Positions 4,200-63,331 of a stretch of DNA of 64,000 nucleotides are shown piece after piece. A program made the translations under genes and the position numbers. Origin of the DNA: Amoebidium appalachense (lineage: Eukaryota > Protista > Ichthyosporea); assembly GCA_963693365.1 (NCBI GenBank), contig CAVNZM010000013.1, forward strand, positions 3,190,722 through 3,254,721, written 5' to 3'. How positions within the stretch are numbered: position 1 is the first letter of the stretch; every line of letters begins with the position of its first letter. The notes under the pieces are model-generated. The model did no database searches. It had not been told where the DNA came from and was given only the letters and a program-made list of their open reading frames with translations.

Positions 4200-4939
4200 A
4201 AACACACACACACACAGTCTGCGCCACCCACCACCCAGAAGCCAGCCTCCAGCCCCCAACGGCCCCTCCGCAGTAACACAGCCATTGTGGTGGACCAGAT
4301 CACACCGACAACTTTCAAAGGTGTGAACATCATATCCCTCCCCCTCCCCCCCCCTCCCCCCCCCCCCCCCCCCCCCCCAAACAAGAAAAAAAGAAAAAAA
4401 AAAGGGAAAAAAAAAAAAAAAGAAAAGAAAAGAAAGAACGAAAGAAACATTCGCACCCATTACCACAAGCACCACCACCACTACGACTTGAGCCTCCCAG
4501 GAGGATGGGCTCCGCTATTGTTGCATACTATTCGTTGCTGGTGTTTGATGGTTTTATGTCTGCCTCTGTATTCTTTTACCCTCTTGTGTCCTGCACCGTG
4601 TTTCTCGTTGTGTAGTTGTAGTCGGTTCTGTGCTCCTCGTTCTAAACCCCCCCCCCCCCCCCCCCAACACCACCAGCACTACTACACAGCACACACGCAT
4701 ACACGCACGCACACGCACGCACGCACGCACGCACACACACGCACACACACAGACACACACACACACACACACACACATACACACCGCCCCCCCCCCCCCC
4801 CCCCCCCCCCCACACACACATACATCCCCCTCCCCCCCCCCCCCCCACCCACACACACACATCCCCCCCTCCCCCCCCCCCCACACACACACACATACAT
4901 CCCCCTCCCCCCCCCCACCCACACACACACACACATACA

Positions 4940-10331: not shown

Positions 10332-10664
10332 CACTTCGCTCCTCCTCCCTCCCCCCCCTCAATCGTGATAATCTCACTAACCCGTGAATGTGGTTTCGTT
10401 TTTCCAGGTTCTTCTCAGCACAACCATACCTACGCTTGCGCTGAGATCCAAAAATCCGCCCCGTGAGAAGGAATTACGGTTTGTGCAGTCGCAGATTGCA
10501 AAGGACATGGGTGCTATGAGGGCTGTACTGAGAGCTGCATCACTGAAACTTGCAGGGTAAGTCGTCATGCACGTGTGTGTATGTATGTGTGGGTGGGTGG
10601 GTGGTTGGGTGAGTGGGTGGGTGTGAGGGTGTGTGTGTGTGTGTTTTAGTGTGTGTGGGTGTGT

Positions 10665-10727
<63 letters not shown>

Positions 10728-11493
10728 TTTTGGGGGGGGGGGGAGGGGGGGGGGTTGTTTATTTTATTTTATTTTTATTTAATTATTTTCTAATTATTGT
10801 CCGGGGGGAGGGGGGGAGGGGGTTGGTTGGTTCAGGTAGAGGACTGCTTGCCTTTGTGGGTCAAGGAAGGATGTGTGTAATATAAGACTTCGTGGTTGTG
10901 TTTGTTTTTTGGGGGTTTGAGTGTCATACCGCATGTTTCTTTCTGCCTTTCTTTCTTGCTTTTTATGGCCGGTTGGTGGCTCTCTGCCCTTCCCCTCCCC
11001 CCCCCCCCTCCCCCCCCCCCCCCTCCCCCCAAGCAACCCTGCTCGTCTTTGATCAAGACGGGTTGACCCACCCAAGTTCAGTTGATGCTGCTGTCTGAGT
11101 TGGAGCGTCGTATATACGCGGGCTAAGGGGTCGAAACTCAGACGCAATTGATGACTTGGGCCCTCCCTGAGGATGGGCTCTGCTTATGACGCATACTGTG
11201 CGCATGGCTGATGCTGCATAGTTGAATGTTTGCCTTTGCATGTGTCCTGCACCATGCTTCTCATCGTGTATGCGTACTTCGTACTGTGTTCCGCATTCAA
11301 ACCCCCCCCCCCCCCCCCCCCTGGGTTTCGTTAACGAGGGGAATAGGTCGAAACTCGGGTACTGTGGATGACGTGGGCCCCCCCTGAGGATGGGCTCTGC
11401 TTATTATGCATACTCTTTATGTATGGCTTGCATTCTGCATCGTGTTATCCGTTTGTTCTTGTGTACTTCGTACTTTTTGACGCATTCAAACCC

Positions 11494-11524
<31 letters not shown>

Positions 11525-15039: not shown

Positions 15040-15528
15040 GGGGGGGAGGGGGGGGGGGGCTTGCTCTCGGTAATTATGATTTAGCTTTTTATATATACAC
15101 CGACTTGGTAAAAGTGCCGTTTGGATCCACCAGTGAGACCAAAGGCTATAAATAACGGCCAATCAGCACAGGCGGTGCACTGCGCTTTGCTACAGCATAG
15201 CTATGCCTAAGCTATTTACATGTACATATAGACAAAACATAGAAACACCACTATCAATTACTTACCCCATAGTATCCGATTATGTGTCTATATTTATATA
15301 TCAGCAGTTAGAAATTGCAGAAATTGCAGTGTTTGCAATGACTGCAAACGAATACAAATCAACAACCAAAAAAGATATATCAGTCATACCTCAAAAATCC
15401 GGCATATGTTCATACCTAAAACTACAACATGCCTTCAAGTTTTCAGACTTTTATACCATCCCGTATGTACCCCATTTTTGGAAACTTGCCATACTTAGAA
15501 ACTTGCCATATTTAAAAACTCCGCATTT

Positions 15529-18500
15529 CTACGCCATGGCAAAGTTGGCCTGGACGGTGGCACCGGCAGAGAGACCAACCGATTTCTTCGCCTCAGAGTC
15601 GTACGCCCTCACGATGACATCATAAGTTCCAGTGGCGACGTTCGAAATTGCGTAATTTCCAATCGCGTCAGTGGTCGTCTTTGCGATCACGGTGCCGGCG
15701 GCATCCACAACCTCCACATCGGCGCCTCTAATCGAACTCTCACCCACATCGTGCACCCCGTTCTTATTCTCGTCACTGAACACCTTTCCTTGCACCGTTG
15801 CCTTGGTTGGGTCAGCGGGTGTGTCGGGGTTTGTTGCGAGCAGATCGCGGAAATTGGGCTCCGCATATCTCCCCGTCGCCTCCGGATAGATGGCCGATTG
15901 CTCGGGAGTGGGCGGCTTTGGCTTGGGAGTCAGGCCTGTGTCGTCATCCGGGGGGTTGTCCCCGACTTGGTCTGCCGGCACAGTTGGATTTATGGGTGTT
16001 GGGCGGGGCCGTGGCGTAAGACCAACATCCTCGCTGGGAACCGGAGAAGAGACTTGGTTGTTGGGAGGGTACATGGTGGGTGGAGTCGTTTCGCCAGAGG
16101 ACGGCGTGGGCTTGGGCTTGGGTGTTAGACCAACGCTTTCGCTGGGAACAGGGGTGGAAACTTGGTCCGCGGGCGGGATCGGCGTTGGTGACGTGGGTGT
16201 TTCACCAGGAGTGGGCGTAGGCTTGGGCTTCGCGGGCGGGATCGGCGTTGGTGACGTGGGTGTTTCACCAGGAGTGGGCGTAGGCTTGGGCTTCGGCGTT
16301 AACCCAACACTTTCGCTGGGGACAGGGATGGAAACCTGGTCGGCGGGAGGGGCCGTTCCCGGAGGTGGTGTTGTTCCACTTGCCGGTGGTGTGCCTGAGG
16401 CTGTCGTAGGGCCAGGGGGCGTGTCGGCAGGTGTAGAGGGTTTGGGCACGAGCGTCGCTGGTGGCTGGCTGGGGACCGGTTGCGTGACTTGGTCGTTGGG
16501 TGGGTTTGCTGTTATGGATGGTGAGGTTAGTTGCAGTGATAGCGGGTGGGTGGCTAGACTCTCTGGGGTGAAGTGAGATTGCTACATCATGCGAGTGTGA
16601 GATGAGGGTTGAAAGGCACCGAGGAGACCGGTAGGGAGGGGAGGAGCGGGGACGGGGGGGAGGGGGAGGGGGGAGGGGGGGAGGGGGGGGGGAGATTGCT
16701 AATGTGGCTTCAGTCCTGGGTGTTTGCAAACAAGTAACGGTTATCGTAGCAAGAGGGGGGAGGGGGGAGGAGGGGCTTACGTGTTGGTGTTGGTGCTGGT
16801 GGCGGGCTGGGAGATGGTGCGGGTGATGGCTGGGGAGCAGGTGTGGTTGGTGGTGCCGGTGTCGGTGCAGGTGGCGGCGGCGGTGTGGGCGTGGGTGGGG
16901 GAGGTGGGGTTGGCGTGGGTGGTGGTGGCGGAGTGGGTGTTGGTGGTGGTGGCGGGGTAGGCGTTGGTGGTGGTGGCGGGGTAGGTGTAGGTGGCGGTGG
17001 CGGGGTAGGCGTAGGTGGCGGTGGCGGGGTAGGTGTAGGTGGCGGTGGCGGGGTGGGGGTTGGTGGGGGTGGCGGGGTGGGTGTAGGTGGCGGTGGCGGG
17101 GTGGGTGTAGGTGGGGGTGGCGGGGGTGGGGGTTGGTGGGGGTGGCGGGGTAGGCGTTGGCGGGGGTGGCGGGGTGGGTGTAGGTGGCGGTGGCGGGGTG
17201 GGTGTAGGTGGCGGTGGCGGGGTGGGTGTAGGTGGCGGTGGCGGGGTGGGGGTTGGCGGTGGTGGTGGGGTGGGGGTTGGCGGTGGTGGTGGGGTGGGAG
17301 TTGGCGGTGGCGGCGGGGTGGGAGTTGGCGGTGGCGGCACCGGCGTTGTAGTGGTGGTTGTTGTTGTTGAATCGGGAGGTGCCGTTTTCGTGGTTGTGAT
17401 GGTGGTGGAGGTAGTGGTAGGTGGCGGGGGAGTGGTGGTTGTTGTCGGTGGTGGCACAGATGATGAATTGGGAGGTGCCGTTTTCGTGGTTGTGGTGGTG
17501 GTGGTGGTAGTGGTAGGTGGCGGGGGAGTGGTGGTTGTTGTCGGTGGTGGCACAGATGCCCTGAACCCAAAGTTGAATTCGTAAATGTCACCCGTCTTGC
17601 GAACCGCCGCTCTGGGATACAGGTGGGTAGAAAATCCCTTGGAATAGTCACCTTTAAATTCGGTAGGAACAGTCGAATTAACCAATCGGATAGTGTAGTT
17701 GGCCGGGGCTAGCATGCCCTTAAACGAGAAATCACCGTTTGCGTCCGTCGTGGTGGTTTGTGCGACCTTTCCAGTCGAATCCACCAACTCAACACCGACG
17801 TCGGGGAACAAACGATCGCCATCAGACGGCATGTTGTCGACATCCTTATCTTCAAACACTGTACCACGGATCGTTGGCGTACCGGGCGGCACAACCCAGA
17901 AATCGATCCGATCTACCGGCGCCTGGGGGGTGATCTGTCCCTGCTTGAGGAAATCATCGGCGGGCTTGACCTCGCGCCGTTTGAAAATAATCTTGTCCGG
18001 TACCTCAGACCATTTCACCTGTCAGGGGATGGGCATGAGTTAGCAATTGCCCCAACACAGAGATTTTTTTTTCCCGCAAACAGTGACCACATGGAAAATG
18101 GCATAATGATATTGATGATGAGATGCAGTGAATTTGAAAAAAGGGACAGGGTGGAGGGGGGAAACGCGTGGAGTGCGGTGTGTGTGTGTTGGGGGGGGGG
18201 GGGGGGGGGGGGGGGAGGGGGGGGTAAGTGCAGGGAAAGGCGGGGATTGATGGGGGGGGGGGGGGGGGGAGGATAGGGGGGGGGGGGGTCGAATAAGCAA
18301 ACATACCCAATAGACCCCGAACTGCAAGTCCGGGAACACATACTGGCCCATATTTGTGGTCTTGGTGGTGTTGACGACAACCTGCTGACTTTCATCCAAT
18401 AGGAGGAGGGTCTGGTTGGCAATACCGACATCCGTCTTGTCCAGCTGACCATTGTCGTTGAAGTCGACAAAGACGTTACCCCAGATCAGACCCAGTTCCT

Positions 18501-20069
18501 TGGGCACCACCAGGCACACAACGAAATCCTGATCGGGGATATCCTTCCCGACGAAATTCACGTTCGTGATCACCGCGGAGGCAACTTGGATGCTCTCGTT
18601 AAAGGTAGTCGAGTCCATCTTGATCGAGTACACACCAATGTCGACATCCTTAAAGATGTACGAGCCCGTGCCGTTGGTGAGCCGCTCGGAGACCACCTTC
18701 CCGTCAGATTTCCTAACAAGGCTAATCTTGATGTTGGGCACGCGCTCCGAGTCAGGTCCCTTAACGCAGTTCTCGGCCAACCAAACGGTACCGGAAATGT
18801 CGCCGGCCTGACGGTAGAAGAAGGTGAACTCCTTCCTCTCTCCCGCCTGGACCGTCAAAACCTGCGAACCGGTGTTGTTTGCCAGAGGAATATACTGCTC
18901 ACCCACAGTGTCCTTGACAACACGCACAGTGTAGGTGCCCGGGGCAAGCTCGAGGAAAAGCGTGTTACCCGTTGCGTCCGTGGGCTTAACGGTCTTGACC
19001 ACGCCGTCCGAACCGACCAACTCGATCGAAATCGCGCTAATCGGGATGTAGCGATCGGGTCCGTCGATGCGCATGTCCTCGATCGTGTACACGGAGATCG
19101 AAGCTGGGGGTTGGGGAGGGGGTGTAAAGAACCCGTAATCGATATCCGTAATCACGGTCTTGACGATTGTCACCGTAGCGACACCAGCCACGGAACCGAC
19201 CGGGACCAGCGTCGGCTTCATGGGCATGGGCAACGTTTTCTCGTCAACGTCAACGGAATAATTTCCGGGAGGAACATTCAACAGTGAATAGAAACCCTTA
19301 GAGTCCGTCGTAAGCTTCACGGGGGCCGCCTGGCGTCGTGACCACCACGGTGACGTTCGGGATTCCGGGCTCTCCAGCATCGAACTTGTTGTTGTTGTTG
19401 GTGTCGTTGAAGACGGTACCGGAGAGACCACCTTGGTAGAAGTAGGCAAAGTCGGCCTCTGCGGTTTTGTTTGCAACGACGGTGACAGACGCCTTGCCGT
19501 CGAGGGGAGCCGTCGGGTCGAACCGCAGAACATAGCCGGTGGGGACCGAAGTAGAGTCGATTTCCACCGAGTACTTTCCCGGAACCAAGTCGGTAAAGTC
19601 GAAGGTACCGTTGGTGTTGGTGGTCGTGGTGGCAATCACCTTGCCCTGAGGGGGGGAGCTCGGGTTAGTGGTGTGATGTGATGTTTGGGAAAGAAATGGT
19701 ACAAGGGAGGTATGATCAGAGAGGGTGAAGGTGTTTGAAAGAAAGGTTGAAAGTGTTAGGGGAAAAAAAGGGTGAAAGTGTTTGAATATAGAGGGTGAAC
19801 AGGGAGGTTCGGGGGAAGTGGGAGGCTGTGTGCAAATGTAGATATGGGATTAATGGGGAATGAGGGGACAGGTGGAGAGGGCACGGGCTTTGGGGGGGAG
19901 GGGGAGGGGGGGGGGGGGGGGGGGAGCATATTTTTTGAACTCAAACTTGGCGAAGATAGGGAACGTGTGTGTGGGTAGGAATAGAGGACGATAAGGGAGA
20001 GATGTGTGTGTGTGTGCGTGTGTGTGTGTGCGCGCGCGCGTGTGTGTGTGCAATTTGTGAGAGTCTTTT

Positions 20070-20119
<50 letters not shown>

Positions 20120-21881
20120 CTACATTCGAGTCCAACAGGTTGACCTTGACGTTTGGAATGGGGGGCTTGGTCTTGTCGATTGTGCCATTTTCAATCACAT
20201 CCTGCTCCACCACCATACCGATGATGTTGCCTAGCAACGGTTTGAATGCCCAGTCGATGTCGTACAGCGACTTGTCGACAATCTGTGATTTGGGTTCCAG
20301 ATATGTTTTGGATGAAGGGAGGAGCAAGTAAAGGGGAGGATGGTGGTGGTTGGAGGGGGAGGGGGAGGGGGGAGGGGAAGGGTGGAGGAAGGGGATGGGA
20401 GGGATAGGGGGAAGGGAGGGGGGTGAGTAAGGGAACAGGGTGGAGATGGGGAGGAGGTTGGGTGGAATGGGGATGAGTGCCATTGTGTGGGTTTGTGTGT
20501 ACGTTGTCCGGGGGGAAGGGGAAGGGGGGGGGGGAGGGGGGGGGGGATGGGAAGGGAACGGCAAAGGTTGGGGGCACAATGAGTACAGTGTTGACAGATT
20601 AAAACAACTTGCATGTACAGTCATGCTATGTAGGACGGGATTGGCTGAACAGAGGTGGCTACAGCTCTTGAGTACAAAACTAAGCAAGCGTGTTCATGGC
20701 CGCAGACTCAGTTCTAAGTTGAAAGAGGAAGAAGATACGAGGAGGGTGGGGGGGGGGGGGAGGGGGGGGGAGGGAGGAGAAGGGGGGGGGGAGGGGAGGG
20801 GAGAGGGAGGGAGGGGAGAGGGAGGGAGGGGAGGGGGAGGGAGGGGGAGGGGGAGGGGAAGCAATCACCTTCACTGTAGCAACACCGTCAAGTGCCCCAG
20901 CAGGCTCGAGAGACACCGCCAAGTCAGCGGGTACCGTGGAATCCACAACATCAATCTTGTACGTGCCGGGGGCCAAGAAAAGCCACTCGTAAATACCAGA
21001 TTTGTTGGTGACGGCATCGGGAAGAAACGCGCCGCTAAGTTTCAGAGTAACTCCTGACAGGAGCGTGTCTCCCTCGTCGAAAACTTGGTTTCCGTTCGCG
21101 TCTTTGAACACTTTTCCCGTTATGTTGTACAGGTACTTGTAAGCAAACGACGCTTCGGAGGTGCCGTTTCCGATGATCATACGGGTCACACCCAAACCCT
21201 TGGTTGTGGCATCGGAGTCGAAGGAAAACTTGAGATGCTCAGGGATCTCTGATTCGTTGAGCTGTGGTTTTTGATCAAGTTGACGAAGAGAGGGGTGAAG
21301 GAGGAGGGGGACCAAGGGGGGGGGGGGGGGGGGGGGGGAGGAGGGGTTGGGGAGGTGATGGGGGAGGGAGTGGGGTGGTGGAAGGGGGGTGGGTGGGTGG
21401 GTGGGGGGGGGAGGGGAGGGGGGATGGGGACAAATGTGGGATGTGTGTATGTGTGTGTAGGAGTTGAGGGAAGGTTAACGTTTGGGATTGGTGGATGTGA
21501 GAGGGGAAGGGTGTTACTAAATAGAAAACTGCAAGATACAATATTGTAGGGTTGTCTCAGCTGGTGTTATGCATGTGTGGGTGCTACAATTTTCCGTGCA
21601 GCGTGTGTGTGGTGTGCACGTGTGTGTCTGTGCCTGTGCATGTGTTTTTTGTGTGTGTGTGTTGGTGTGTACGCACGTGCATGTGTGTGTGCTGTGTGTG
21701 TCTGTCCGTGTGTGCCTCTGTAGACGTGTTGAGTGAGAAGAACCATTTTTACTGTCTATGCTTCTGTCAAACCGTGAGTGCATCTTTCGCATATGTAAAG
21801 CAGTTTACAACGAGAATTCCTATGCATGATGTGCCCATGATGGTCAAAAACTGAAAATCGTGTGTGTGTGCGTTTGTGTGT

Positions 21882-21968
<87 letters not shown>

Positions 21969-24900
21969 GGGGGAGGGGAGGGCGGGAGGTGAAGGGAAAG
22001 AAGGGGAAAAGGGAGGAGGCGCAGAGAAGTTAAAAAGGAGACATACCGTGACAAAGTACCGCCAGTCATAAATGGTGGGGTTCAAATTGGTGAACAGATA
22101 GCTCCCGTTCGCGTCTGTTTTCATCGTCTTCAGCACCTCACCCGTGTCATTCCTCTTCAGGAATATCGTCACACCGGGGATCGGCTCATCATCGGGGTTG
22201 AACTTGAATTTCGGGTTCCTGTCTATCACCACACGACCGTAAATACCGCCCTGCATGACGTAAATGAAGTCGACGTGATTGATGTTTGCGTTAGCGGTGG
22301 TCAACGCGACGTTGTTTGCGAAATTGTCCGGGGTTCCATCCCAATCTTGAATGCAAGAGACATAGGAATAGATGGTGTCGGTGTCGACGGCGACTCTGTA
22401 CGTCGAAAGTGGGACGCTGGTAAAATTGTAAGCGCCGTTTTCGTCCGTGATCGTCTTGGCCACCTGCTTGTTGCTCTTTTGGTCAAAGAGATACATGGTC
22501 GCCCCCTTGAGGGTGATGTTTGCCTCAATACCCGTGTCACGTGCGCTGATCCACAGACTACCGGAAATGTTCCCCACGATGGGCTCAGGGGGCGCTGTGG
22601 GAGTGGTGGTGGTGATGGTGGTGGTGGTGGTGGGCGGCGGTGGCGGCGGGGTGGTGGGGGGTGGTGGCGGCGGGGTAGTAGTAGGGCCCGGTGGTGGTGG
22701 CGGGGTCGTTGTGGGTGGTGGTGGTGGCGGGGTGGTAGTTGGCGGCGGTGGCGGCGGGGTGGTGGTAGGTGGTGGTGGTGGTGGAGTGGTGGTGGGCGGT
22801 GGTGGCGGGGTCGTTGTGGGTGGTGGTGGTGGCGGGGTGGTAGTTGGCGGAGGTGGCGGCGGGGTGGTAGTTGGAGGCGGTGGCGGCGGGGTAGTGGTGG
22901 GTGGTGGTGGTGGTGGAGTGGTGGTGGGTGGTGGTGGTGGCAGGGTGGTGGTGGGCGGGGGCGGGGGCGGCGTAGTCGTGGTGGTAGTGATTGGATCCGG
23001 TGGTGGAGTGGTGGTAGGTGGTGGTGGTGGTGGTGGTGGGGTAGTAGTAGGGCCCGGTGGTGGTGGCGGGGTCGTTATGGGTGGTGGTGGTGGCGGGGTG
23101 GTAGTTGGCGGCGGTGGCGGCGGGGTGGTGGTAGGTGGTGGTGGTGGTGGAGTGGTGGTGGGCGGTGGTGGCGGGGTCGTTGTGGGTGGTGGTGATGGCG
23201 GGGTGGTAGTTGGCGGAGGTGGCGGCGGGGTGGTAGTTGGATGCGGTGGCGGCGGGGTGGTAGTTGGAGGCGGTGGCGGCGGGGTAGTGGTGGGTGGTGG
23301 TGGTGGTGGCAGGGTGGTGGTGGGCGGGGGCGGGGGCGGCGTAGTCGTGGTGGTAGTGATTGGATCCGGTGGTGGAGTGGTGGTAGGTGGTGGTGGTGGT
23401 GGTGGTGGGGTAGTAGTACTAGTAGGTGGTGGTGGTGGCTGAGTAGTAGTGGGTGGGGGGGGTGGTGGGGTGGTGGTAGGTGGTGGTGGTGGCTGAGTAG
23501 TAGTGGATGGTGGGGGTGGTGGGGTGGTGGTAGGTGGTGGCGGGGGGGGAGTAGTGGTAGGTGGTGGTGGTGGTGGCGTGGTGGTGGGTGGTGGTGGTGG
23601 CGGGGGCGGTATTGGTGGTGGGAGTGGTGGTGGTGGTGGTTGTAGGCTTCTTACGGTAAGCAAACGATGCCTGGTTGGGCCCAAAAGCAATAATCTTGCT
23701 GTCGATAACCTCCTTCATGGTCTTTGCATCGGAATCGTAGAATGGCTTCACGTCGTTGAGGGAGAGATTATCGACCTGCTTATCGATCTGTGTGCAAACA
23801 GATTTTTAATTAGTCAAAGTAGATCCACCAATGCGGGTGCAAAAGCTACCCAACTAAGTGGGTGAGGCAAAACTCTCAAAACTACGAACGTGCATCATAT
23901 GTGTAGCCAGTGGTGGCATCGTCTTTTCAAAACAACATTATAGGGGCCCTTGCATGACAAGCAATAATCTTTCTTTCACAAGTCAACCCCAAAATAGGAA
24001 GACATTGGGCATACAGTATTATCTATCCCTCTCTGCCTCACATTCTCTCATCCTACCAAATGATAACGTTGCTCCTAGTGACCGTTTGCATGACATTTTA
24101 GGAAGAGGGGAGAGGAGAGAGAAAGGAGCTGGGAGGAAAGGGGGAGGAGGAGAGGATGGGAGAGAGGGGGAGGGGGAGTGGAAGGGGGGAAGGGGGGGGG
24201 GGGGGGGGAGGGGGGGGGGGTAATTAATACCATCAGGGTGTAGTCAGTTGGGTCAAGGTTGTCGAACCGATACTCTCCCTTTGCATCTGTCACCGCCGTG
24301 GCGAGGGGGGGCCCTGTGAGCTGGTCCTTTTTGTAGAGTTTAATCGTCACTCCGGGAAGCATCCTATCTGCGTCGGTAATTTTCCCAAGTCCGACCGTAT
24401 CTTCCACCGTACGTCCCCAGATGCTGCCCTGGCCCATGTAGCCAAAATCAACCGCCGTTTTCGTTTCGCCGTTCGCAACGGTCACCTTGCAAGTCCCGTC
24501 TCCGGAACCTGCCGGCGAATCAGAGTCTACCCATGGACGGGTGCTCGTCGGCGTTTCCACCTTAATTTCGTAATTGCCGGCTGGAACATTCGAGAAGGTA
24601 TACAAACCGTTTGAATCGGTGGTTACCGTCGCCTTGACGGCGCCGTTTTGGAGCAGCTGGACTTGGGTTCCCGGGAATGTTTTGATGGTGTCTTGGCGGG
24701 TGGCAATCATGTCCGTTTGGATCGTACCGGTGATGGTGGCTGGGGCCCCTGTGTCCACCGTGGCGGCCTGTGCGTTTTTTTGCGTAAGTACGTGTATGTT
24801 TGTGTGTGTTCGCGGACGTGTGCATGCCGAGTGCACAGGAGGGAGGGACGTGACTGCGCGGAAATCTTAGAAAGCGAGGGAAGGGAAGGGAGAGGGTGTG

Positions 24901-25069
24901 GGGTGTGGGAGGGTGGGGGGGGGGGTTTGAATGCGGAACACGGTACGAAGTACGCATACACGATGAGAAGCATGGTGCAGGACACATGCAAAGGCAAACA
25001 TTCAAGTATGCAACATCATCCATGCGCACAGTATGCGTCATAAGCAGAGCCCATCCTCAGGGTGAGGGT

Positions 25070-39217: not shown

Positions 39218-44785
<5,568 letters not shown>

Positions 44786-45754
44786 GTTTTTATGGTGTGC
44801 ATGCACGCACGTGCATGCGTGTGTGAGTGAGAGTGTGTGCGTGCGTGTGTGTGCTTGTGTGTGTGTGTGTGTGTGTGCGTGGTGAAAAAAGGAAGTGTGG
44901 TGCAAGCTCCAGTGCTTTCGGGTCGGGCCGGAGAATAGACAAGACAGATAAAGGACGAGAGAGAGAGGAAGGTATGTAAAAACTTACACGTCCTGAATTA
45001 GCCCCTTATAATTAGCTGCGTTGGGATCATGTTAACTCTAGCTATGGTTAATCAAGAGTAGGAGAGTGACCTGTTCTCTAACATTCGTAACAACAAGTGA
45101 CAGACGTTCGACGTCCACTGAGCCCTCGGAGCCCGGACCGGAACCAGGCAGTGCACATGAAACCGGTGAGGGACGGTTACTGAAATTGTTCGGATGAAGT
45201 TATCTCAGGGTTTTTATTATGTATATTTTGGTATATATGTGTGTAACACACATAGATACAATTTCAAATTGAAGTGTGTAGAGCGATCAAGATGTACTAA
45301 AAGTTTCTATCAGAAAACTGTGGTTTTGGAAGTGTCTGTCGGAGCCCCATATTGAGTTCTCCCTAGCTTTAACGTCATTCCGCATCTATGTTGTAACCCC
45401 CATCAACAGCCTTTATTGGATAATAGAAAACGGAAACTATGCAGCATGATCATTGCGCGCAATGGATTGGTTTCCAGCCTCCTCATAAAAATGGGGCCGG
45501 CCGGCAGACCTTCAGCAATAGCCAAGCCTGAAGAAGAACTGTGTGCACATAGGAACAGCATTTTGTTTTTTCACAAAGTATTTCTATTAGTGACTAAAGT
45601 TGGAAGATTTTCTTTTTCATTTTTTCCGGGAGTTGAACGGGAGCGCCAACGATTGGCATCTAACGCACCAATCATTGGCAACAAGTCCCCCCCCCCCCCT
45701 CCCCCCCCCCCCCCCCCCCCTCTCCCCCCTGGAGTCCCCCTCCCCTTTCCCCAG

Positions 45755-49312: not shown

Positions 49313-63331
<14,019 letters not shown>

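Follow-up and report, generated by a model that had tools for sequence, protein, structure and literature searches.

A predicted hammerhead-type ribozyme with its core opened between A9 and G10.1 in a poly-C-embedded repeat of Amoebidium appalachense

The locus and its repeat

The window, by which we mean the whole analysed stretch of 64,000 nucleotides from Amoebidium appalachense, contains dispersed copies of a repeat of about 290 nt, which is 5'-truncated, embedded in poly-C and devoid of an ORF. The copy on which this report centres lies likely in an intron of a + strand Tudor/PHD gene, whose upstream exons were recognised through Pfam and whose donor GT is at 10557; the frame check for the acceptor of this intron yielded none. 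Two further copies occupy the intron at 61911-63207 of a Sas10/Utp3 gene, and the exons that flank it join in frame. On the - strand, a large intron-containing gene at 15500-24900 encodes many SdrD B-like and prealbumin-like repeats with Pro/Thr-rich linkers, a domain set that is commoner in bacterial surface proteins. The same strand carries a stop-free frame of 706 codons with several hydrophobic stretches (42863-44983), upstream of a class 3 lipase exon at 39221-39700; this ORF gave no Pfam match, and a protein search returned no homologue. The copies referred to below are the following:

11030-11305, + strand: the element itself, a nearly full-length subfamily A copy between poly-C runs
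11322-11494, + strand: subfamily B copy inside the poly-C tail of the preceding A copy, starting one base before the predicted cut
9-273, + strand: subfamily B copy whose ribozyme domain is complete; cut predicted at 101/102
61965-62250, + strand: full-length subfamily A copy, sense, in the Sas10/Utp3 intron
62559-62752, + strand: subfamily B copy lacking the upstream stem II strand, in the same intron
58096-58290, + strand: 5'-truncated subfamily C copy with GAAA, CUGAUGA, the non-bulged kink-turn strand and helix X
24922-25062, - strand: truncated subfamily A copy, sense to the SdrD-repeat gene

A profile search of the window returned 17 places, 14 of them at E below 1e-7; 13 of these 14 had been part of the training alignment, and since the reversed window, which served as control, also gave one match, the three weak matches were not counted. 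Among the 14 confident copies, 13 share a 3' end at the C run, eight start within 20 positions around the C run that precedes CUGANGA, and a single one starts at the predicted cut, where no clustering is seen. All 17 matches lie on the strand that is locally rich in C, in a window with 116 runs of eight or more C and 93 of G. In the genes checked, the sense strand of introns is rich in C, and this alone accounts for the orientation of the element. The adjacent copies at 11030/11322 and 58096/58300 belong to different subfamilies, so that nested insertions into poly-C tails account for their adjacency.

A common 3' end, frequent 5' truncation and insertion into (C)n are traits of non-autonomous Penelope-like elements (PLEs) of the Naiad/Chlamys type. 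Chlamys PLEs, according to the available text of Craig and others, target (C)n, are 5'-truncated and include some non-autonomous members (Craig et al., 2021; PMC8557442), and the present element resembles them in all three respects as well as in its AAC-poly-C end. It is likely a non-autonomous Penelope-like retroelement: the copy pattern fits poly-C-primed reverse transcription and, given that Chlamys traits are alike, a Penelope-like partner is likely. No reverse-transcriptase motif and no autonomous partner were found in the 64-kb window.

Layout and variation of the predicted ribozyme

Within the subfamily A copy at 11030-11305, the parts of the predicted ribozyme are arranged as follows:

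11037-11039, + strand: leader strand of the inserted helix P1, predicted partner 11175-11177 (after A9 and one U)
11041-11063, + strand: inserted hairpin P0, running into G10.1
11065-11069, + strand: 5' strand of stem II (G10.1 is 11065), pairing with 11128-11132
11071-11077, + strand: 5' strand of the basal helix, pairing with 11154-11160
11079-11086, + strand: bulged strand of the kink-turn, with 2 bp, a 3-nt bulge and tandem G.A pairs with 11149-11153
11087-11101, + strand: 5' strand of stem III with its extension, ending in U16.1 (11100) and H17 (11101)
11101/11102, + strand: predicted cut, by analogy with hammerheads
11102-11105, + strand: strand of stem I past the predicted cut, pairing with 11163-11166
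11109-11118, + strand: 10-nt palindrome, perfect, within the stem I-II linker of subfamily A
11128-11151, + strand: 3' strand of stem II, GAAA (11133-11136), 3' strand of stem III and non-bulged kink-turn strand
11158-11180, + strand: 3' strand of stem I, CUGAGGA (11167-11173), U 11174; alternative helix X
11181-11305, + strand: variable tail, ending at the poly-C run

The hammerhead core is complete, comprising C3-U4-G5-A6-N7-G8-A9, G12-A13-A14, A15.1-U16.1, H17 and G10.1-C11.1. The original prediction had placed stem III at 11093-11100 and 11136-11143 with a GUU triplet at 11099-11101, stem I at 11102-11105 and 11163-11166 next to CUGAGGA at 11167-11173, the upstream stem II strand at 11065-11069 opposite 11128-11132, and a basal helix between 11071-11077 and 11154-11160, and all of these are present. 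Its non-circular order of strands is likewise borne out, the cleavage strand being followed by GAAA and then by CUGANGA, in departure from the circular order of types I, II and III. The expectation that standard models would miss the fold also held, as Rfam returned no match at the gathering score and, among three weak matches up to E 10, no ribozyme family. The 5' strand of stem II had further been described as detached: that it is supplied from upstream stands, whereas it does not appear to be a loose strand, as the inserted helices P1 and P0 would bridge A9 and G10.1. These two helices and the kink-turn were absent from the original prediction.

Stem III passes via a standard kink-turn into the basal helix, in which two helices enclose a 3-nt bulge and, next to it, tandem G.A and A.G pairs, as in the definition given in the introduction of PMC5689011. 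Position 3b.3n is U.U in subfamily A and A.G in B, and 3n=G permits k-turn folding in metal ions (PMC4382518). On the other side of the core, P1 can form between the leader at 11037-11039 and the strand that follows A9, and P0 then leads to G10.1; from homologous Naiad tails compared by eye (see below) we infer that the chain runs from A9 through P1 and P0 to G10.1, and that the 5' strand of stem II hence lies upstream. The linker between stems I and II spans 18-22 nt, and in subfamily B it holds another perfect 10-nt palindrome (107-116), the sequence of which is unlike that of A. The loop of P0 is a 6-nt palindrome in both subfamilies (11050-11055 in A, 52-57 in B); the copy at 61965 has a wobble-compatible variant of it, and the loop may act as a kissing loop.

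The covariation analysis rests on the two subfamilies that are complete in the window. Among the 50 homologous pairs listed for A and B, 34 are unchanged, four show one-sided and six two-sided changes, four are broken in A and two in B. When the leader helix P1a (7 pairs, outer, of uncertain register) is excluded, A has 41 standard pairs, of which 40 are still paired in B (copy 9-273), with 17 letters changed and the six two-sided changes included. Under random reassignment of the changes (20,000 trials, two transition weightings), as many pairs were kept in 0 and 1 trials, and six two-sided changes were reached in 0 of 20,000. The two-sided changes include one each in stem I, stem II and the basal helix, and stem III is also among their sites; the third pair of stem I is A-U in A and G-C in B, and the fifth pair of stem II is C-G in A and U-A in B. 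The claim that subfamily B maintains every helix is sustained with 40 of 41 pairs kept, the fourth pair of stem I being broken in B. For the subfamily C copy at 58096, the claimed GAAA and CUGAUGA blocks were found, the cleavage strand and the upstream stem II strand being absent; as this copy is 5'-truncated, it is informative for the GAAA and CUGANGA blocks only.

Stems I and II are pseudoknot helices, which make sense only in a hammerhead geometry. A descriptor with the S-G-C block order and an upstream stem II strand, which was built post hoc with the element already known, gave three matches in the window versus none in 200 dinucleotide shuffles. The folding energy is ordinary (z of -1.73 for A and -1.34 for B), and the + strand, which had been proposed as the folded RNA, is more stable than the - strand in five of five stretches. 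Stems I, II and III, the basal helix and the kink-turn signature are supported by covariation, and the hammerhead-type fold is real and covarying, the ribozyme itself being a prediction from sequence.

Variation across the family was followed in public sequencing runs, in which repeat-matching contigs, whose depth is not equivalent to copy number, amounted to 11,711 on A (run X1) and to 7,944, 6,895, 5,192 and 2 on B (four runs). Positions 70 and 124 of B, which form the fifth pair of stem II, vary in three runs at 3.2/4.4%, 4.2/2.9% and 4.0/4.4%, as expected of linked compensatory change, in a table that is unphased. Across three runs, no changes of 1% or more are listed at G5, A6, G8, A9, G12-A15.1, U16.1, H17, G10.1 or C11.1; changes at C3 and U4 reach up to 1.8% in one run, and one change that breaks a P0 pair attains 9.6% in one run. 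In A, variable places number 5 among the 139 of the ribozyme domain and 13 among the 113 of the tail (Fisher p 0.025), and once two places with subfamily B letters are set aside, the other three are all unpaired in the model (p 0.018). Two runs are guessed to be RNA, and the depth dips near the predicted cut in one of them and a contig spans the cut in the other; contigs reveal neither ends nor levels, and neither observation was counted as evidence.

The same runs contained at least 35 X1 contigs that continue past the short C run of the element into one common splice-acceptor-like family (11309 onward; runs X1, X10 and X20). This shared sequence, which is absent from the window, could represent either a preferred target or the remainder of a master element that is longer than the repeat. 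A further subfamily is represented by an internally deleted copy (joint 69 to 166, runs X1 and X8), in which the deletion lies between both stem II strands; it retains its GAAA block along with the strands of k-turn and basal helix, and its stem III arm is shorter (12-nt). Pattern scans gave eight metagenome and 80 viral matches, none of the 88 passing the combined test of stem III and stem I; a second pattern had no viral and four chance-like prokaryote matches, and a helix X pattern had six viral matches, none with GAAA upstream.

Helix X, formed by 11158-11163 with 11175-11180, closes the CUGAGGA block into a hairpin and possibly represents an off state. It is fully paired at 10 of the 13 sites examined, eight of them in A or B copies, and in minimum-energy folds it sequesters the CUGANGA block. 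Helix X and the full basal helix have near-equal energies (-31.6 against -32.0 for A, and -35.4 against -37.1 for B), which makes the ground state ambiguous. The idea that helix X extends stem I in the active fold was demoted, since in Naiad tails it is the leader that pairs with the strand following A9. In the older truncated copies at 925-1056, 4483-4649 and 51298-51416, CUGA is broken and the six bases after A9-U are kept, a retention that is partly due to ascertainment bias.

In the available text of Craig and others, no canonical hammerhead is reported for Naiads or most Chlamys, and eight cases are mentioned in which two core halves lie 35-50 nt apart; 'HHR_core' and 'HHR_half_core' are labels of Naiad/Chlamys tails (Craig et al., 2021; PMC8557442). 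A motif search of the consensus file of that study, which holds 54 Naiads, returned seven tails, from Beroe, Acropora (three), Morbakka and Octopus (two), that by eye share a seven-helix wiring on unrelated sequence; other tails returned, e.g., those of nematodes, have the core halves in the usual order. The shared order is leader helix, hairpin, upstream stem II strand with G first, basal helix, bulge or k-turn, stem III, NUH, stem I, GAAA and CUGAUGA. Stem II has six Watson-Crick pairs, differs in sequence by genus and opens with a G-C from the upstream strand, and the strand after A9 pairs with the leader in four Naiad genera over 3 to 8 pairs. The tails of Acropora and Morbakka have no G within two bases of A9, while the upstream G is found in all four Naiad families; this points to the upstream G as G10.1 and favours P1 over helix X. 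One of the three Acropora consensus tails carries one mismatch each in stem I and stem II, and the basal helix of the Beroe Naiad is long enough for a monomer. Two complete Chlamys tails, inspected by eye, showed no such ribozyme.

Proposed mechanism and competing explanations

The reading that we put forward tentatively, as credible rather than probable, is that the element, likely a non-autonomous PLE with a complete hammerhead core, gives rise to an RNA for which self-cleavage is predicted behind the GUU at 11101, a head-to-tail dimer being the likely active form. Stem III of hammerheads stacks on stem II (PMC4209133), and in both A and B about 24 bp-steps separate the k-turn from the far end of stem II, where the basal arm offers 9 bp and a 1-nt linker; a rigid-rod estimate, which is no atomic model, gives a gap of 42-59 Å for a monomer versus a reach of about 31 Å. 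The arm from k-turn to core (16 bp) would thus be too long for the return of the 9-bp basal arm, which suggests a dimer on crude geometry. A head-to-tail arrangement would remove the gap: the stem II strand and the CUGANGA block of either RNA would sit on the cleavage/GAAA loop of its partner, and the palindromic linker would pair across both RNAs. The element RNA would be cut out of tandem or read-through transcripts, lone intronic copies staying mostly uncut, and an autonomous Penelope-like element at another place in the genome would reverse-transcribe it in a reaction primed at poly-C targets. Strand-swapped dimer models reach -53.4 and -63.2 kcal/mol versus twice -20.4 and twice -25.4 for monomers (about 12 better); any hairpin gains by dimerising, and the natural linker loops rank 36 and 15 of 256 for dimer gain. 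A ring of two members needs about 50 degrees of extra bend per half, and a trimer fits equally. Cleavage confined to dimers would explain why intact intronic copies are tolerated.

A broader proposal, which we regard as doubtful, is that a widespread and undescribed topology, whose core opens between A9 and G10.1 to give a five-helix junction, would be the missing ribozyme of retroelements of Naiad and Chlamys type, and that the kink-turn of the long-armed version found here would have made it an obligate dimer or trimer, gated by the L7Ae family, so that lone intronic copies leave the pre-mRNA uncut.

That the same split-core ribozyme cleaves in cis as a monomer, its stems I and II docking once an off state made of basal helix and k-turn (or of helix X) opens, is unlikely, yet deserves serious attention. 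The type SGC hammerheads of Eckert and others (2023; PMC10085705) cleave co-transcriptionally in cis, with an interaction helix that is also far from stem III in the standard structure, the short-armed Naiad versions could by eye close alone, and the sequestering of the CUGANGA block by helix X in minimum-energy folds would suit such a switch. Opposed to this are the conservation of the basal helix all the way to stems I and II, whose outer ends must be bridged by a helix in type SGC (PMC10085705), the stiffness of stem III, a 13-bp helix in B, and the persistence of intact sense copies in introns, including that of Sas10/Utp3. More doubtful again is a hammerhead-derived fold of negligible cleavage, which the element RNA would retain for protein binding or for recognition by the reverse transcriptase. 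The literature searched offers no tested precedent for two helices inserted between A9 and G10.1, copies that reach upstream of the cut are common, the contig spanning the cut comes from a run guessed to be RNA, and minimal hammerheads of PLEs are poor cleavers in vitro (PMC4209133). A binding domain, however, would have no need for a NUH triplet beside stem I, and the catalytic positions are all kept in A, in B, in the two blocks of C and in the Naiad families, while the stems vary freely.

The position of G10.1 bears on a very improbable alternative, a near-canonical core in which one extra base follows A9, G11175 takes that place and nothing but the outer part of stem II is paired by the upstream strand. 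PLE hammerheads typically have a base between A9 and G10.1 (PMC4209133), a single G10.1-C11.1 pair with a pseudoknot works in the PK hammerhead (PMC11300833), and U-G follows A9 in A, B and C; against it, only two pairs can form, and by eye Acropora and Morbakka lack a G near A9 whereas four Naiad families have the upstream G. An intronic k-turn RNA of snoRNA type, or a SINE, in which hammerhead words occur by chance, is scarcely credible. It would accommodate the intronic position on the sense strand, the box C/D-like k-turn of A, one weak snoRNA match (E 8) and the ordinary folding z-scores, but no Rfam family was found at the gathering score, the interior is a paired stem with no single-stranded guide, the k-turn of B is not of C/D type, and two-sided changes in both pseudoknot helices, along with the 0 of 200 shuffles, count against it too.

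Should the tentatively favoured dimer be real, a natural ribozyme braced by a k-turn and gated by dimerisation would explain the survival of intact copies in host introns, and it would offer a ready design for RNA switches gated by protein or concentration. If the element cleaves, this would also account for the seeming absence of hammerheads from Naiads and most Chlamys, since descriptors are blind to this wiring.

Relation to known hammerheads

The order of cleavage site, GAAA and CUGANGA is not new, as it has already been published for type SGC (HRIMA-1 and variants), for which cleavage was shown (Eckert et al., 2023; PMC10085705). The element shares with type SGC the block order S, G, C, the crossing pseudoknots formed by stems I and II, and exactly the same connectivity of a basal helix that joins the far ends of these stems. 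It differs in that the 5' strand of stem II comes from upstream, with two helices between A9 and G10.1, in that both ends are joined through the k-turn from stem III to the basal helix, and in its longer I-II linker, which measures 18-22 nt and contains a palindrome where type SGC has about 3 nt. In type SGC the stem II strand directly after CUGANGA was assumed to be uninterruptible (PMC10085705); in the element at most two pairs can form there (with an insertion of 0-1 base), so that the intact block C of type SGC is not found. Type SGC is known from metatranscriptomes only, with none in the genome of a known organism according to the available text (PMC10085705), whereas the carrier here is a genomic repeat. 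On its sequence, the element is predicted to be an SGC with its ends joined via a k-turn and its chain broken open again between A9 and G10.1. Cleavage, if it occurs, would mean that the hammerhead core tolerates a break where the type SGC paper assumed none, and that permutations exist beyond the six proposed there (PMC10085705).

The literature searched, in which coverage of subscription papers and bioRxiv supplements was poor, held no description of a split core. The fold is not described for Naiad or Chlamys tails in the available text of Craig and others (PMC8557442), and the available parts of Forgia 2023 (PMC10162972), Perreault 2011 (PMC3088659) and PMC13725137 contain no such variant. 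Cervera and De la Pena described minimal hammerheads of PLEs, which are thought to act as dimers (Cervera and De la Pena, 2014; PMC4209133), and with these the element has in common the retroelement setting and the logic of a palindrome-assisted dimer; they differ in being of type I order, in having a stem III that is short and palindromic, and in placing no more than a single base between A9 and G10.1. In the PK hammerhead an upstream strand likewise contributes to the helix in the stem II position, but there G10.1-C11.1 follows A9 without interruption, and the blocks keep a circular order (Zhan et al., 2024; PMC11300833). Non-LTR retrozymes are, like the element, short non-autonomous hammerhead-bearing derivatives of PLEs (bioRxiv 10.64898/2026.07.22.740005); they include tandem arrays of units, whereas the copies studied here are dispersed, 5'-truncated and nested in poly-C tails. 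The tails of Octopus Naiads have a k-turn too, with the bulge on the strand opposite to that of the element. The topology, which was not encountered in the literature searched, is nearest to type SGC and, by eye, is common to the seven Naiad tails.
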